From NCBI RefSeq assembly GCF_044324875.1, contig NZ_CP172185.1: a DNA stretch of 64,000 bases; one strand, given 5' to 3'. Numbering within the stretch: the first letter of the stretch is position 1; each line of letters begins with the position of its first letter. The DNA is from Escherichia coli (GTDB lineage: Bacteria; Pseudomonadota; Gammaproteobacteria; Enterobacterales; Enterobacteriaceae). The translations under genes were made by a program, and so were the position numbers. A model generated the notes under the pieces. The model worked only from the letters and a program-made list of their open reading frames with translations. It made no database searches and was not told where the DNA came from. Shown one piece after another: positions 17,638 through 46,926 of the stretch.

Positions 17638-17740
17638 CGATGCCGGATGCGGCGCGAACGCCTTATCCGGCCTACAAAAGTTTGCAAATTCAATAAATTG
17701 CAGAATTCATGTAGGCCTGATAAGCGAAGCGCATCAGGCA
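17638..17740. repeat. BIME: two inverted REP palindromes between sbp and pfkA
   Basis: gatgccggatgcggcgcgaacgccttatccggcctac and gtaggcctgataagcgaagcgcatcaggca. Confidence 0.7.
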
Positions 17741-39645: not shown

Positions 39646-40296
39646 TTAACGCAGGCTATTATAGTCATCGACCATTTCGTTGTACTCGCGTAACGCTCGC
39701 GGAAATGAGTCGTCGACCATCCAGCTGGTGTTTGCATCCTGAAGTTGCTCTTTATCCCAGTCAGAGTACGGAACTTTATCTCTGACGCGGCGAACATATT
39801 TTTTAGCCTCGAGTTGATACTGGTCTGCCGAATTAATGAACGAGAAATTCATACCGCCTTTATCCGCTTCTTTGGCCTGCGCCACCAGCGTTTCCAGTTC
39901 AGAGACTTTCTTCATTGCCGCATCAACATCAAACTTCTCTTGCGAAATCAGGTTATTAATTTGTTTCGCTGAAATCATGACTGCCAGAGAGTAGTAGTGG
40001 AATGTTTTCCCTTCTCTTTGTTCAATATTTTTCAGTTCCGCAAGCTGGCGCTTATCGTTAATTTCCTGAATCGCCGCATGATAAGATTCTGCTACAGGTT
40101 CAAAGGCTTCAAGATTTTTTAAGAATGTCTGGTGCAGCGTTTTCCCTTTCGCAAACGCATCGTCTTTATAATTTTCCTGGGTGTAATATTTATCCATTTC
40201 GTTAATGGTATTACCCAACGCCACGGCAGCATCAATATAACTCACCGCCACGCCATCAATAGGTTGCAGCGCAGGCGTTAACGCCACTACACGCAT
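39646..40296 (-). CDS. yiiG: YiiG-like protein (DUF3829); possibly 5'-truncated versus K-12
   Basis: ORF 39646-40326 (GTG) with internal ATG at 40296; no signal peptide or lipobox at the N-terminus; only ~50 bp separates it from the fdhD stop. Confidence 0.55.
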   Translation of the reverse strand: MRVVALTPALQPIDGVAVSYIDAAVALGNTINEMDKYYTQENYKDDAFAKGKTLHQTFLKNLEAFEPVAESYHAAIQEINDKRQLAELKNIEQREGKTFHYYSLAVMISAKQINNLISQEKFDVDAAMKKVSELETLVAQAKEADKGGMNFSFINSADQYQLEAKKYVRRVRDKVPYSDWDKEQLQDANTSWMVDDSFPRALREYNEMVDDYNSLR

Positions 40297-40375
40297 TTTG
40301 TTTATAAATAAAATAATAAAATTCACGAAATGAATAAGTCCTGCAATTTAATATATATCGCAGGACTTATTTTAA

Positions 40376-41209
40376 TTAATTGCTCAAACGCTGCGGATGG
40401 GTATAAACCGTTGCCCGACCCGGTTTACAAAAGCCCACCAGCGTCAAATTACAGCGTTCAGCCACTTCTACAGCAAGTGTGGTCGCGGCAGACACCGCAA
40501 ACAAAATCTCTACGCCACACATCGCCGACTTTTGCACCATTTCATAACTGGCACGACTGGAAACCAGCACCGCACCTTGCTGCCAGCTTTCCCCTTCTTG
40601 TGACCGGCGGCCTAACAGTTTGTCCAGCGCCACATGGCGACCCACGTCTTCATGCCCGCCGACCAGTTCGCCAGATGGCAACATCCATGCAGCGGCGTGA
40701 GTACAACCAGTCAGTTGCCCCACTGGCTGGAAATCATTGAGATGACGTAATGCATCATCCAGTTTGTTGAGATCAAACGTCTGGGTGAACGGCAGCGGCT
40801 GCACCGGTTTCCCGATATCGTTAAGCTGTTCTACACCGCATACGCCACAGCCCGTACGTCCCGCCAGCGCCCGGCGGCGTTCCTTCAACCCCATAAAGCG
40901 GCGGCTGGAAAGCTCAATTTGAACTTCAAGACCATTACAGGAAGGAACGACATCCATGCCAAAGATATCGCGCGGACTTTCGATTATCCCCTCGGAAAGC
41001 GAAAAACCGAGCGCAAAGTACTCAAGGTCTTTGGGCGACGCCATCATCACCACATGCGAAATGCCGTTGTAGACCAGCGCAACGGGAACTTCTTCCGCGA
41101 CCTCATCTAACCGTGGGTGTTGTAAATCATCACGCCGCCATAACTCAATTTGACGAACACCTGTGATATTTGTCACATTTTCGATTTCTTTTTGCTGTGT
41201 TTTTTTCAC
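40376..41209 (-). CDS. fdhD: sulfurtransferase FdhD (formate dehydrogenase accessory protein)
   Basis: 277 aa, [28 protein letters not shown]... Confidence 0.9.
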
Positions 41210-41402
41210 TTTCTCTTAACCAGATAAGAACACACACACCAACATTATGGTATTCTGTTACAAACCCTTCCTGGATGGAGGGAAATTGAGCCAATTCTGG
41301 ACCTTTGCGGCCCCTTCCGCAAAGAAAAATAACTCCCACTCCCTGCACACGCAGCAAGCGAATGTAAATGGGACGTGACAATGTCGAAACAAGGAGCAAT
41401 CC

Positions 41403-44400
41403 ATGCAGGTCAGCAGAAGGCAGTTCTTTAAGATCTGCGCTGGCGGTATGGCAGGCACCACGGCGGCGGCACTGGGTTTTGCACCCAGCGTAGCACTCGC
41501 GGAAACCCGGCAGTATAAACTGCTGCGCACCCGCGAAACCCGTAATACCTGCACCTATTGTTCCGTAGGCTGTGGGCTGTTGATGTACAGCCTCGGTGAC
41601 GGAGCAAAAAACGCCAAAGCATCTATCTTCCATATCGAAGGCGATCCGGATCACCCGGTCAACCGCGGTGCACTTTGTCCGAAAGGCGCTGGCCTGGTGG
41701 ATTTCATCCACTCCGAAAGCCGTCTGAAGTTTCCGGAATACCGTGCGCCAGGTTCTGATAAATGGCAGCAAATCAGTTGGGAAGAGGCGTTTGATCGCAT
41801 CGCCAAACTGATGAAAGAAGACCGCGATGCTAACTACATTGCGCAAAACGCCGAAGGCGTGACAGTTAACCGCTGGCTCTCCACCGGGATGCTGTGTGCT
41901 TCCGCGTCGAGTAACGAAACCGGCTATTTAACGCAAAAATTCTCCCGCGCGCTGGGTATGCTCGCGGTCGACAACCAGGCGCGTGTCTGACACGGACCAA
42001 CGGTAGCAAGTCTTGCTCCAACATTTGGTCGCGGTGCGATGACCAACCACTGGGTCGACATCAAGAACGCCAACCTCGTCGTGGTGATGGGCGGTAACGC
42101 CGCTGAAGCTCACCCGGTCGGGTTCCGCTGGGCGATGGAAGCCAAAATTCACAACGGCGCGAAGCTGATTGTGATCGATCCTCGCTTTACGCGTACGGCG
42201 GCGGTGGCTGACTACTATGCCCCTATTCGTTCCGGTACTGACATTGCTTTCCTGTCAGGCGTATTGCTGTACCTGCTGAACAATGAAAAATTCAACCGCG
42301 AATACACCGAAGCCTATACCAACGCCAGCCTGATCGTGCGTGAGGATTACGGCTTTGAAGATGGCCTGTTCACCGGCTATGACGCGGAAAAACGCAAGTA
42401 CGATAAATCCTCCTGGACTTACGAACTGGACGAAAACGGCTTCGCCAAACGCGATACCACGCTGCAACATCCGCGCTGCGTGTGGAACTTGCTGAAACAG
42501 CACGTTTCCCGCTACACGCCAGATGTGGTTGAAAACATCTGTGGTACGCCAAAAGACGCGTTCCTGAAAGTCTGCGAATACATCGCAGAAACCAGTGCTC
42601 ACGATAAAACTGCCTCGTTCCTGTATGCCCTCGGCTGGACGCAACACTCCGTTGGTGCGCAAAACATTCGTACGATGGCGATGATCCAGCTGCTGCTCGG
42701 CAACATGGGGATGGCAGGCGGCGGCGTTAACGCCCTGCGCGGTCACTCCAATATTCAGGGGCTGACGGACCTGGGGCTGCTGTCGCAGAGCCTGCCAGGT
42801 TACATGACGCTGCCAAGCGAGAAGCAGACCGATCTGCAAACCTACCTTACCGCCAACACGCCAAAACCGCTGCTGGAAGGCCAGGTAAACTACTGGGGCA
42901 ACTACCCGAAATTCTTCGTCTCCATGATGAAGGCCTTCTTTGGTGATAAAGCGACGGCGGAAAATAGCTGGGGCTTTGACTGGTTGCCGAAGTGGGATAA
43001 AGGCTACGACGTCCTGCAATACTTCGAGATGATGAAAGAAGGCAAGGTCAATGGCTATATCTGCCAGGGCTTTAACCCTGTTGCCTCATTCCCGAACAAA
43101 AACAAAGTGATCAGTTGTCTGTCGAAACTGAAGTTCCTCGTCACTATCGACCCGCTGAACACTGAAACCTCTAACTTCTGGCAGAACCACGGTGAGCTGA
43201 ACGAAGTTGACTCGTCGAAGATCCAGACCGAAGTGTTCCGTCTGCCATCGACCTGCTTTGCGGAAGAGAACGGTTCTATCGTTAACTCCGGTCGCTGGTT
43301 GCAGTGGCACTGGAAAGGTGCGGACGCCCCAGGGATTGCGCTGACTGATGGCGAGATCCTCTCCGGTATCTTCCTGCGCTTGCGCAAGATGTATGCCGAA
43401 CAGGGTGGCGCGAACCCGGACCAGGTGCTGAACATGACCTGGAACTACGCTATCCCGCATGAGCCGAAGTCGGAAGAAGTAGCGATGGAGAGCAACGGTA
43501 AGGCGCTGGCCGATATTACCGATCCGGCAACCGGTGCGGTTATCGTCAAGAAAGGCCAACAACTTAGCTCGTTCGCCCAACTGCGCGATGACGGTACAAC
43601 CTCCTGTGGCTGCTGGATTTTCGCCGGTAGCTGGACGCCAGAAGGTAACCAGATGGCACGCCGTGATAACGCCGATCCGTCTGGCCTCGGTAACACGCTG
43701 GGCTGGGCATGGGCATGGCCGCTTAACCGCCGCATTCTGTATAACCGCGCCTCCGCAGATCCGCAGGGTAACCCGTGGGATCCGAAGCGTCAGTTGCTGA
43801 AATGGGACGGCACTAAGTGGACCGGCTGGGATATTCCGGACTACAGCGCAGCGCCTCCGGGTAGCGGCGTCGGGCCGTTTATCATGCAGCAGGAAGGCAT
43901 GGGGCGTCTGTTTGCCCTCGATAAGATGGCGGAAGGTCCGTTCCCGGAACACTACGAGCCGTTTGAAACGCCGCTGGGAACTAACCCGCTGCATCCAAAC
44001 GTTATCTCGAACCCGGCTGCACGTATCTTTAAAGACGACGCCGAAGCATTGGGTAAAGCCGATAAGTTCCCGTATGTCGGAACCACCTATCGTCTGACCG
44101 AGCACTTCCACTACTGGACCAAACACGCGCTGTTGAACGCGATTTTGCAACCAGAGCAGTTTGTGGAAATCGGGGAGTCGCTGGCGAATAAACTTGGCAT
44201 TGCCCAGGGCGATACCGTGAAAGTCTCCTCCAACCGTGGCTATATCAAAGCCAAAGCGGTGGTGACCAAACGTATTCGCACGCTGAAAGCGAACGGCAAA
44301 GATATCGATACCATCGGTATTCCGATTCACTGGGGCTATGAAGGTGTTGCGAAAAAAGGCTTTATTGCCAATACGTTAACGCCATTCGTTGGTGATGCGA

Positions 44401-44453
44401 ACACGCAGACGCCAGAGTTTAAGTCCTTCCTTGTGAATGTGGAAAAGGTGTAA
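41403..44453 (+). CDS. fdoG: formate dehydrogenase-O major subunit (selenoprotein; in-frame TGA at 41988-41990 read as Sec)
   Basis: ORFs 41403-41990 and 42039-44453 are in the same frame, separated by one TGA; Tat signal MQVSRRQFFKICAGG; Fe-S and molybdopterin motifs. Confidence 0.9.
41988..42040 (+). promoter_or_regulatory. selenocysteine codon plus putative SECIS hairpin region of fdoG
   Basis: The TGA is followed by structured sequence (cacggaccaacggtagcaagtcttgctccaac...); the element itself is inferred from the in-frame selenoprotein context. Confidence 0.45.
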
Positions 44454-44465
44454 CGGAGACGACAT

Positions 44466-45368
44466 ATGGCTTATCAATCTCAAGATATCATTCGTCGTTC
44501 CGCGACTAACGGTCTGACCCCCGCGCCTCAGGCGCGGGACTTCCAGGAAGAAGTGGCGAAACTCATCGACGTCACCACCTGTATCGGCTGTAAAGCCTGT
44601 CAGGTGGCGTGTTCAGAGTGGAACGACATTCGCGATACCGTCGGCAATAACATTGGGGTGTACGACAACCCCAATGATTTAAGTGCCAAATCGTGGACGG
44701 TAATGCGCTTCTCGGAAGTGGAGCAGAACGACAAACTGGAATGGCTGATCCGCAAAGACGGCTGTATGCACTGTTCCGATCCAGGCTGCCTGAAAGCGTG
44801 CCCGGCGGAAGGAGCAATTATTCAGTATGCCAACGGTATCGTCGACTTCCAGTCCGAGCAGTGCATCGGCTGCGGTTATTGCATTGCGGGCTGTCCGTTC
44901 GACATTCCGCGCCTCAACCCGGAAGACAACCGCGTCTACAAATGTACGCTGTGCGTTGACCGCGTGGTGGTTGGGCAAGAACCGGCCTGCGTGAAGACCT
45001 GCCCAACGGGCGCGATTCACTTCGGTACGAAAGAGTCGATGAAAACGCTGGCGAGCGAGCGCGTGGCGGAGCTGAAAACTCGCGGTTACGACAATGCGGG
45101 TCTGTACGATCCGGCAGGCGTTGGTGGTACACACGTTATGTACGTGCTGCACCATGCTGACAAGCCAAATCTGTATCATGGCTTGCCGGAGAACCCGGAA
45201 ATCAGCGAAACCGTGAAATTCTGGAAAGGCATCTGGAAACCGCTCGCGGCTGTTGGCTTTGCGGCTACCTTTGCGGCCAGTATCTTCCACTACGTGGGTG
45301 TCGGTCCGAACCGTGCGGATGAGGAAGAGAATAATCTGCACGAAGAGAAAGACGAGGAGCGCAAATGA
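44466..45368 (+). CDS. fdoH: formate dehydrogenase-O iron-sulfur subunit
   Basis: 300 aa; multiple CxxCxxCxxxCP ferredoxin motifs. Confidence 0.95.
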
Positions 45369-46000
45369 AACGACGTGACACCATCGTGCGCTACACCGCG
45401 CCGGAACGTATCAACCACTGGATCACCGCCTTCTGCTTCATCCTGGCGGCGGTGAGCGGGCTGGGCTTTTTGTTCCCGTCCTTCAACTGGTTGATGCAAA
45501 TCATGGGCACACCGCAGCTGGCGCGAATTCTGCACCCGTTTGTCGGCGTGGTTATGTTTGCCTCGTTCATCATCATGTTTTTCCGTTACTGGCATCACAA
45601 CCTAATCAATCGGGATGATATCTTTTGGGCGAAGAATATTCGTAAGATCGTCGTCAACGAGGAAGTAGGTGACACCGGGCGTTATAACTTCGGTCAGAAA
45701 TGCGTTTTCTGGGCGGCGATTATTTTCCTGGTTCTGCTGCTGGTGAGCGGCGTGATTATCTGGCGTCCTTATTTTGCGCCTGCTTTCTCAATCCCGGTGA
45801 TCCGATTCGCGTTAATGCTGCATTCATTTGCCGCAGTGGCGTTAATTGTGGTTATCATGGTGCATATCTACGCCGCCCTTTGGGTGAAAGGCACGATTAC
45901 CGCCATGGTGGAAGGATGGGTTACCAGCGCCTGGGCGAAGAAACATCACCCGCGCTGGTACCGTGAGGTCCGCAAGACAACGGAAAAGAAAGCTGAATGA
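45365..46000 (+). CDS. fdoI: formate dehydrogenase-O cytochrome b556 subunit
   Basis: 211 aa, 4 TM with His ligands. Confidence 0.95.
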
Positions 46001-46926
46001 GTATTCGCATAATCCCGCAAGATGAGCTGGGTTCGAGCGAGAAACGTACGGCGGATATGATTCCGCCGTTATTGTTCCCTCGGCTCAAGAATTTATACAA
46101 CCGCCGCGCCGAGCGTCTGCGCGAGCTGGCAGAAAATAATCCGCTGGGTGATTATCTGCGCTTTGCTGCGCTTATCGCCCACGCCCAGGAAGTGGTGCTG
46201 TACGACCATCCGCTGGAAATGGATTTGACCGCACGCATTAAAGAAGCCAGCGCACAAGGCAAGCCCCCGCTGGATATTCACGTTCTACCGCGTGATAAGC
46301 ACTGGCAAAAGCTGCTGATGGCGCTGATTGCTGAGCTGAAACCTGAAATGAGCGGCCCGGCGCTGGCAGTGATTGAGAATCTGGAGAAGGCATCGACCCA
46401 GGAGCTGGAAGATATGGCCAGCGCACTGTTTGCCTCTGATTTCTCGTCCGTCAGCAGTGATAAAGCGCCGTTTATCTGGGCTGCGCTGTCGCTCTACTGG
46501 GCGCAGATGGCTAATCTGATCCCCGGCAAAGCCCGCGCTGAATACGGCGAACAACGTCAATATTGCCCGGTATGTGGCTCTATGCCGGTGTCCAGCATGG
46601 TGCAAATTGGCACCACTCAGGGGCTGCGTTACCTGCACTGCAACCTGTGTGAAACCGAATGGCACGTAGTGCGCGTAAAATGCAGCAACTGCGAGCAGAG
46701 CGGCAAACTGCATTACTGGTCGCTGGATGACGAACAGGCCGCGATTAAAGCCGAAAGCTGCGATGACTGCGGCACTTACCTGAAGATTCTTTATCAGGAA
46801 AAAGAACCGAAAGTTGAAGCCGTGGCAGATGACCTCGCCTCTCTGGTTCTGGATGCGCGAATGGAGCAAGAAGGCTACGCCCGCAGTTCCATCAACCCGT
46901 TCCTGTTTCCGGGTGAAGGGGAGTAA
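45997..46926 (+). CDS. fdhE: formate dehydrogenase formation protein FdhE
   Basis: 309 aa; CPVCG...CNLCETEW...CSNCEQ...CDDCG zinc-ribbon motifs. Confidence 0.95.

Follow-up and report, generated by a model that had tools for sequence, protein, structure and literature searches.

The in-frame UGA of fdoG in an Escherichia coli genome: a known selenocysteine codon followed by a standard SECIS hairpin

The insertion of selenocysteine (Sec) at UGA through the binding of SelB to an mRNA minihelix is established in Escherichia coli for two formate dehydrogenase genes, fdhF, whose product is the cytoplasmic FDH-H with Sec140, and fdnG, which belongs to the nitrate-inducible operon fdnGHI. SelB-dependent recoding requires that a SECIS stem-loop directly follow the UGA on its 3' side (PMC4513850), and the E. 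coli element has been defined as an apical stem-loop of about 17 nt starting 11 nt past the UGA (nt 15-31), with U17, G23 and U24 as determinants (PMC8659212). Three selenopolypeptides are found in this species, FdoG among them (PMC4009273). In the window considered here, i.e., the whole stretch of 64 kb that was analyzed, codon 196 of fdoG is a UGA that is almost certainly decoded as selenocysteine under the direction of a SECIS hairpin lying downstream of it. The grounds for this reading in the present analysis are the anatomy of the site, its identity with known genes, a covariance-model match, covariation among homologues and constraint at synonymous sites; none of the observations made contradicts it. 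The TGA at 41988-41990 is the known Sec codon of fdoG and is accompanied by a standard SECIS, an ordinary case that has already been described.

At this locus two ORFs share one frame of the + strand, 41403-41990 (195 aa) and 42039-44453 (804 aa), and the TGA is their sole separator. Translation of 41403-44453 runs into one stop before the end, the TGA of codon 196, and finishes at a TAA; from 41991 onward the frame is open, and the 16 codons from the TGA to the first ATG (HGPTVASLAPTFGRGA) are also coding. An earlier note on this DNA had recognized a single in-frame TGA joining two long ORFs and had attributed the gene to fdoG, and both statements hold. The gene is fdoG by its locus context (fdhD, fdoGHI-fdhE; Table 1) and by its near-identity to K-12 fdoG (b3894), from which the readthrough gene differs at 35 nt (98.85% nucleotide identity), none of them inside 41900-42100, and the protein at two amino acids (G571S and S689K). 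K-12 b3894 is annotated as one CDS of 3051 nt with TGA as codon 196, and the two loci are alike in gene, length, position of the TGA and gene order (fdhD / fdoG-fdoH-fdoI-fdhE), the differences being strain-level variation only. The paralogue fdnG (b1474), by comparison, shares 75% of the nucleotides and 77% of the protein residues; it likewise carries a TGA at codon 196 and sits elsewhere, in the separate operon fdnGHI. The gamma subunit encoded downstream points to the same gene, since it scores 453.3 bits on the FdoI model (NF007924) vs. 243.6 bits on the FdnI model (NF007558). In RefSeq this gene is often named fdnG, an automatic generic label and not a true paralogue assignment.

Table 1. 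Features of the fdoG locus, with positions counted in the window.
Feature	Coordinates	Strand	Basis or remark
fdhD, accessory sulfurtransferase, divergent, upstream	40376..41209	-	TIGR00129, 340 bits; arrangement as K-12 b3895
fdoG, formate dehydrogenase-O alpha (catalytic, Mo-bisMGD/selenocysteine) subunit	41403..44453	+	1016 codons, Sec196 among them; stop codon TAA
Twin-arginine (Tat) signal peptide, residues 1-33 (MQVSRRQFFK...SVALA)	41403..41501	+	motif in translation
SECIS element (Rfam SECIS_3, RF01989), inside coding sequence	41985..42043	+	covariance-model match
UGA selenocysteine codon (Sec196)	41988..41990	+	codon 196 here and in both K-12 paralogues, fdoG and fdnG
Apical minihelix GGUAGCAAGUCUUGCUCC, putative SelB-binding site	42002..42019	+	begins at nt 15, past an 11-nt spacer
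fdoH, FDH-O beta (Fe-S) subunit	44466..45368	+	TIGR01582, 478.7 bits; annotated fdoH in RefSeq strains and K-12
fdoI, FDH-O gamma (cytochrome b556) subunit	45365..46000	+	NF007924
fdhE, formate dehydrogenase accessory protein	45997..46926	+	NF002925, 604 bits

The readthrough product has the complete domain set of FdoG, namely a Tat signal, an Fe4S4 domain, a molybdopterin oxidoreductase domain and an MGD-binding domain. Pfam matches were obtained for residues 44-103 (PF04879), 107-589 (PF00384) and 894-1009 (PF01568), and the second of them, the molybdopterin domain, spans codon 196. The profile of the formate dehydrogenase alpha subunit (TIGR01553) is matched at positions 1-194 before the TGA and at positions 196-1009 after it (271.4 and 1279.7 bits, cut-off 814.2), exactly one profile position being left over for the TGA itself. 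The S-R-R-x-F-F-K motif is present in the translation (SRRQFFK) and residues 1-33 align with the N-terminus of FdnG in the structure 1KQF; the cleavage site of the Tat signal is presumably the one expected from established knowledge of FdnG and FdoG.

The TGA occupies the position that is expected for the Sec codon, as the earlier note had supposed. The pair TGA-CAC (U-H) aligns with X196-H197 in chain A of 1KQF, so that Sec196-His197 of FdnG and FdoG correspond residue for residue, and the same TGA aligns with the Sec of the Sec-His pair in FdhA structures of Desulfovibrio (D. vulgaris). The surrounding motif, QAR(V/I)-U-H-(G/S)-PTV, is conserved, and 115 of the 119 matches to the genome pattern carried a TGA at the homologous site, in diverse phyla and all within formate dehydrogenase alpha frames; the other four (L067, L081, L097 and L100) lay outside formate dehydrogenase genes and were discarded as chance matches. 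No tRNA gene was found in the 64-kb window, from which the genes of the Sec machinery were likewise absent. Of 5426 complete E. coli genomes, 5424 carry selC, which encodes tRNA-Sec, and the Sec machinery is expected to be present in this particular genome on account of its species.

The sequence around and beyond the UGA matches Rfam SECIS_3 along the entire model (positions 1-59 of 59, not truncated) with 84.3 bits, as compared to a gathering score of 63, and E=1e-19. Every determinant of the E. coli SECIS (PMC8659212) is present at its exact position: counting from the U of the UGA, the bulged U17 is 42004, left unpaired by the Rfam structure as well as by the minimum free energy (MFE) fold, and the loop G23 and U24 are 42010 and 42011, respectively. 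The minihelix folds as ((.(((((...))))))) at -4.5 kcal/mol, and below it the hairpin is formed by pairing of roughly 41993-42000 with 42025-42033. Structured sequence directly downstream of the codon had been claimed in the earlier note for the span 41988-42040, which does take in the Sec codon and nearly all of the hairpin; the structure proved to be real as a conserved RNA, a full-length SECIS_3, and folding energy alone proved uninformative. The comparison with the fdnG and fdhF hairpins that had been proposed there was also run. A region of 63 nt is identical in this gene, in K-12 fdoG and in fdnG, including all SECIS nucleotides of the latter, and the architecture is shared with the experimental model fdhF, i.e., a UGA, an 11-nt spacer and a minihelix with the bulged U17 and the loop G23 and U24, in a hairpin of about 40 nt in both. 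The two elements differ in the stem sequence (GGUUGCAGGUCUGCACC in fdhF vs. GGUAGCAAGUCUUGCUCC here) and in the loop, which reads GGUC in fdhF and AGUC here and is predicted to comprise 3 nt above a closing A-U pair in this sequence as compared to 4 nt in fdhF. Membership of SECIS_2, the fdhF type, was rejected at only 28.1 bits vs. a gathering score of 70.

The apical helix and the loop match the SECIS_3 consensus, and the enterobacterial lower stem, GGACC...GGUCG, can adopt the consensus register at the cost of two non-standard pairs or else pair with a shift of one base. When the Rfam consensus stem is mapped on this sequence, the non-standard pairs are A41992-C42032 and A41996-G42028 and the energy is -7.2 kcal/mol, whereas the MFE stem, with its register shifted by one base and a bulged G, reaches -13.8 kcal/mol and is the better fit in E. 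coli. Across species the two registers have about equal support (77% vs. 81% paired), and the register of the lower stem is therefore ambiguous in this sequence. This is of little consequence, because the lower stem must unwind once the UGA occupies the A site (PMC4513850). By folding energy alone the SECIS region was not distinguishable from shuffled sequence, with z-scores of -0.56 for 41985-42045, -1.44 for 41988-42035 and -2.06 for the 18-nt apical minihelix. Since the validated fdhF SECIS scored no better in the same test (z = +0.08), folding energy was rejected as a criterion.

The SECIS lies within coding sequence that is itself highly conserved, and yet it shows selection at the RNA level, in the form of compensatory changes at third codon positions and of an invariant synonymous U in the loop. 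Covariation was assessed on 87 distinct sequences taken from the 115 homologous TGA sites and representing many phyla. In these sequences the apical helix was 90.3% paired, with four of the seven pairs changing on both sides; the pair of columns 24-30, both of them third codon positions, was AU in 38 sequences and CG in 38, and the pair 21-33 was GC in 50, AU in nine, CG in seven and UA in seven. The covariation score (0.236-0.268) exceeded those of all slid controls (0.057-0.120) and was reached by none of 500 shuffles. The lower stem was weaker than the apical helix in the homologues (77-81% paired). The column of the bulged U was invariant in the 87 sequences, though a conserved Val codon has its second position there; the loop G was conserved in at least 90% of them and the loop U was invariant. 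The latter, U24 at 42011, lies at a third codon position and was T in 87 of 87 sequences, in codons for Ser, Gly and Ala alike, while all the remaining third positions between 41993 and 42041 varied, 42011 being the sole invariant one. Within the species, 5425 of the 5426 complete genomes contained the 63-nt SECIS region, the median copy number being two.

If the TGA were a genuine stop, the locus would encode two proteins, a 195-aa N-terminal fragment with the Tat signal and the Fe4S4 domain and an 804-aa protein starting from the ATG at 42039. The mechanical list of ORFs does give two entries, and in reporters the UGA of fdhF is recoded by only about 30-40% of the ribosomes, the others terminating (PMC4513850), a partial recoding that makes a truncated 195-aa by-product plausible, especially when selenium is scarce. 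As the main fate of the codon, nonetheless, termination appears very improbable, and the two separate proteins that had been named beforehand as the outcome contrary to Sec decoding are contradicted by profiles and domains that are continuous across the TGA, as seen for both PF00384 and TIGR01553. The 16 codons from the TGA to the ATG (HGPTVASLAPTFGRGA and variants) are conserved as protein across phyla and belong to the solved FdnG polypeptide, and the Met encoded by that ATG (Met213) is part of a conserved GAMTN motif. No AGGA, GGAG or GAGG occurs within 25 nt upstream of the ATG at 42039, whereas AAGGAG precedes the start at 41403, and the K-12 gene is annotated as a single CDS. Homologues of formate dehydrogenase with Cys in place of Sec occur in other organisms, and the TGA might on that account have arisen from a Cys codon (TGC or TGT), by recent nonsense mutation or through an error in sequencing, in a copy that would then be a pseudogene. 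This is the least probable of the readings considered and is effectively refuted by the conservation of the TGA, which is also present in K-12 fdoG and fdnG, lies in a 63-nt stretch that 5432 of 5433 E. coli records contain with an identity of 99% or more, and recurs at the 115 homologous loci of many phyla, where a hairpin with compensatory changes follows it each time; the remaining gene, moreover, is intact and departs from the K-12 protein at just the two residues given above.

A further possibility is that the UGA is read mainly by a standard tRNA (near-cognate, for Trp or Cys) and not by SelB and tRNA(Sec), the conservation downstream being due to protein constraint only. Most of the conserved nucleotides do encode a highly conserved peptide as well, and protein constraint accounts for part of the pattern. 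It explains, however, neither the covariation of third positions that keeps the pairs (AU and CG being equally frequent at 24-30), nor the constancy of U24, a synonymous position in the Ser, Gly and Ala codons alike, nor a covariance-model score well above threshold, and these three observations count against near-cognate reading, to which we assign a very low probability, similar to that of termination. In fdhF reporters readthrough was negligible without selenium and depended on the SECIS (PMC4513850).

For the decoding of UGA as selenocysteine, the sequence of events at fdoG would be as follows. As the ribosome nears the codon, the mRNA just 3' of the UGA would fold into the SECIS hairpin, and the minihelix, with its bulged U and loop G-U, would be bound by the C-terminal domain of SelB. 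The complex of SelB, GTP and Sec-tRNA(Sec), tethered in this way at the mRNA entrance, would outcompete release factor 2 at the UGA, and the expected product is one Tat-exported polypeptide of 1016 residues, in which Sec196 and the adjacent His197 would form the molybdenum active site of formate dehydrogenase-O. From established knowledge we infer SelB binding, the actual insertion of selenium and the catalytic role of the residue; that SelB binding and SECIS-dependent Sec insertion take place at this very locus is likely given the identity to the K-12 fdoG and fdnG elements and the literature on them.

In terms of annotation, an ORF caller splits fdoG unless the UGA is recognized, and the gene should be given as a single CDS of 1016 codons with a translation exception at 41988-41990. 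The selenocysteine of FdoG is textbook biology and opens no new question. Two further candidates in the same region were rejected. An ORF on the opposite strand (41928-42152, 74 aa, GTG start) is a mechanical ORF within a strongly conserved coding region and is without support, and the Rfam FdoG1_thermometer upstream (41234-41432) scored 32 bits vs. a gathering score of 50, with a good alignment in its 3' half only.

The longest run that is identical between fdoG and fdnG measures 71 nt (41985-42055). On the 3' side it outruns the canonical SECIS hairpin by about 22 nt, and it is nearly unchanged among Escherichia, Citrobacter, Enterobacter, Klebsiella, Yersinia, Photorhabdus and Providencia. 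It is conceivable, though in our estimate rather unlikely, that efficient Sec insertion in Enterobacterales needs more than the minimal SelB-binding minihelix, with an extended RNA element, a requirement for spacing or ribosome contact, or recurrent gene conversion as possible explanations; alternatively, the synonymous freeze over the 71 nt may simply be due to preferred codons plus chance.

In the ORF list the gene for the catalytic (alpha) subunit of formate dehydrogenase-O appears as two plus-strand pieces in a shared frame, one of 195 aa that begins with ATG (41403-41990) and one of 804 aa (42039-44453), which the earlier note had joined through one in-frame TGA read as the expected selenocysteine (Sec) codon. 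Translation of 41403-44453 agrees with this, giving 1017 codons with a terminal TAA and a single internal stop at codon 196 (TGA, 41988-41990); the frame is open from 41991 onward, and the apparent gap up to the ATG at 42039 arises because the ORF lister requires a start codon. The TIGR01553 profile covers its positions 1-194 on the upstream piece and 196-1009 on the downstream piece, leaving one position for the TGA, and a Pfam search with Cys placed at residue 196 returned an Fe4S4 domain (44-103), a single molybdopterin oxidoreductase domain crossing the TGA (107-589) and an MGD-binding domain (894-1009). No gap interrupts the alignment of residues 1-312 with the FdnG structure 1KQF (E = 2.7e-178), in which the TGA faces the X at position 196 of the chain and is followed by a conserved His, and Desulfovibrio FdhA structures described as 'selenocysteine-containing' align at the TGA likewise. 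The TGA is a sense codon, very probably read as Sec.

The name fdoG given in the earlier note also stands, because of near-identity to K-12 fdoG, the neighbouring genes, the fit to the FdoI model and the low identity to fdnG. The alignment to FdoG that had been proposed as a check showed a gene of the same length as K-12 fdoG (b3894, one annotated 3051-nt CDS), with 35 nucleotide and two residue differences, none near the TGA; the residue changes are G571S at codon 571 (43111-43113) and S689K at codon 689 (43465-43467). The region 41200-44600 was matched in 5425 of 5426 complete E. coli genomes (95-99.4% identity), and the surrounding genes (fdhD, fdoH, fdoI, fdhE) follow the K-12 order. The gamma subunit scored 453 bits with the FdoI model vs. 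244 bits with the FdnI model, and nucleotide identity of the alpha gene to K-12 fdnG was only 75%. The label 'fdnG, formate dehydrogenase-N subunit alpha' that RefSeq/PGAP attaches to it in many E. coli strains is at odds with its fdoG context and identity, and is a naming artefact in which a generic name comes from the shared TIGR01553 model. A 470-bp stretch of K-12 (4086946-4087415) is missing from the window at ~40280-40287, between fdhD and frvR, and with it the spacer separating fdhD from yiiG as well as the yiiG 5' end; the remnant ORF (39646-40326, minus strand) is annotated in the closest RefSeq strain as an incomplete YiiG-family pseudogene.

Elements of the fdoG Sec site and neighbouring genes (nt 1 = U of UGA)
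Feature	Coordinates	Strand	Remark
Apical minihelix GGUAGCAAGUCUUGCUCC	42002-42019	+	11 nt from UGA
Bulged U17	42004	+	position as in PMC8659212
Loop G23 and U24	42010-42011	+	positions as in PMC8659212
fdhD	40376-41209	-	divergently transcribed; NCBIfam model well above cut-off
fdoH	44466-45368	+	NCBIfam model well above cut-off
fdoI	45365-46000	+	NCBIfam model well above cut-off
fdhE	45997-46926	+	NCBIfam model well above cut-off

The structured sequence that had been noticed downstream of the TGA proved to be a SECIS hairpin, matched end to end by Rfam SECIS_3 (RF01989) at 41985-42043 (84.3 bits vs. a gathering score of 63, E = 1e-19), the top Rfam match of the entire window. The determinants published for E. 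coli (reviewed in PMC8659212) all occur in fdoG at their exact positions: an apical stem-loop (nt 15-31) spaced 11 nt from the UGA, the bulged base U17, and the loop bases G23 and U24. In the window sequence the lower stem can be assigned less surely than the apical part: the Rfam consensus register contains two non-standard pairs, the minimum-free-energy fold moves the register by one base, and across species, among the matches listed, the two registers have about equal support (77% and 81% paired). The register matters little, however, since the lower stem has to melt once the UGA is in the A site (PMC4513850). K-12 fdoG and K-12 fdnG both share the 63 nt from 41985 exactly, and at ≥99% identity this stretch is found in 5432 of 5433 E. 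coli records, as a rule in two copies per genome (fdoG, fdnG).

Folding was another check proposed in the earlier note. Energy did not set the hairpin apart from dinucleotide shuffles (z = -0.56, -1.44, and -2.06 for three spans). The validated fdhF SECIS, which shares its architecture but not its stem sequences, itself scored z = +0.08. Folding energy does not answer whether the element exceeds chance, and homologous sites were therefore collected for covariation, using a degenerate nucleotide pattern that encodes A-R-(V/I)-UGA-H-x-P-T and imposes no constraint 3' of alignment column 17. Scanning one-genome-per-species bacterial contigs gave at least 119 usable matches; among those listed, 115 of 119 were in-frame TGA codons in formate dehydrogenase alpha genes, from Proteobacteria, Desulfobacterota, Acidobacteriota, Nitrospirota, Actinomycetota, and Firmicutes. 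In the ungapped alignment of 87 distinct 59-nt sequences among these listed matches, the apical helix was 90.3% paired and four of its seven pairs had changed on both sides (columns 24-30: AU 38, CG 38; columns 21-33: GC 50, AU 9, CG 7, UA 7). The overall covariation score was 0.236-0.268, vs. 0.057-0.120 with partners slid by 1-3 columns, and none of 500 shuffles reached the observed value. Third codon positions are a useful signal because the element sits in a conserved peptide; all of those in 41993-42041 vary in the 87 sequences except 42011 (loop U24), which is T in 87/87 though its codon is Ser, Gly or Ala by lineage. In these sequences the covariation and the invariant 42011 cannot be put down to protein constraint and show selection at the RNA level.

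Three other readings of the TGA were considered, and we regard each of them as highly improbable. That it is a true stop and two proteins are made, the outcome which the earlier note had set against its own proposal, is contradicted by domains continuous across the TGA, a conserved inter-ORF peptide and the lack of a ribosome-binding site at ATG 42039, with no AGGA, GGAG or GAGG ≤25 nt upstream; the genuine start codon at 41403 is preceded by AAGGAG. Conservation in 5425 genomes and at least 115 distant loci contradicts an origin of the TGA by nonsense mutation or sequencing error, and the RNA-level covariation contradicts a UGA read through independently of Sec. The Sec codon and SECIS in fdoG are correct, well located and already known.

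As for the mechanism, the sequence evidence shows an fdoG mRNA in which UGA196 is followed by the SECIS hairpin, and U17, G23 and U24 are displayed by its apical minihelix at a constant 11-nt spacing from this codon. Established work on fdhF and fdnG suggests that SelB-GTP-Sec-tRNA(Sec) would bind the minihelix via the SelB C-terminal domain and, competing with RF2, bring Sec to the UGA in the A site, and that Sec196 would be a molybdenum ligand in full-length, Tat-exported FdoG. In fdhF reporters ~30-40% of ribosomes recode (PMC4513850), and some truncated product is therefore expected. E. coli has only three selenopolypeptide genes, fdoG, fdnG, and fdhF (PMC4009273). The 64-kb window does not contain the Sec machinery, and no tRNA genes were found in it; 5424 of 5426 E. 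coli genomes carry selC.

The sole mildly non-textbook point of the site is a frozen synonymous span. The longest identical run between the window fdoG and K-12 fdnG is 71 nt (41985-42055), outside which the two use identical codons for only 61% of identical residues. The matches listed include 20 usable Enterobacterales loci, both fdoG-like and fdnG-like, whose identity to the window across 360 nt is 74-96%; third positions outside 41985-42055 differ in 5-17 of these 20 loci, and those inside in 0-2. The span reaches ~22 nt past the 3' end of the hairpin (42033), and in the wider multi-phylum alignment of listed matches the 3' sites 42035 and 42038 vary freely. Its cause could be an extra RNA constraint, preferred codons (GGT, GCG, ACC, AAC, CAC) or gene conversion.

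Other Rfam matches reaching the gathering score were ClpQY_promoter (2531-2588, plus strand, 63.6 bits), the sRNA ES036/CssrF (17677-17718, plus strand, 48.2 bits) and the enterobacterial sRNA STnc370 (63066-63134, minus strand, 54.9 bits vs. 54). FdoG1_thermometer (RF02778), a 5' UTR RNA thermometer, was sub-threshold at 41234-41432 (32 bits vs. 50), aligning well only in its 3' half, i.e., the ribosome-binding site and first fdoG codons. Among the scanned loci, an uncultured Enterobacterales MAG (L062) carries two formate dehydrogenase alpha genes on one contig and strand, ~5.9 kb apart, both having a Sec codon and a SECIS (sites 2241-2263 and 8155-8177), whereas E. coli fdnG and fdoG lie far apart.
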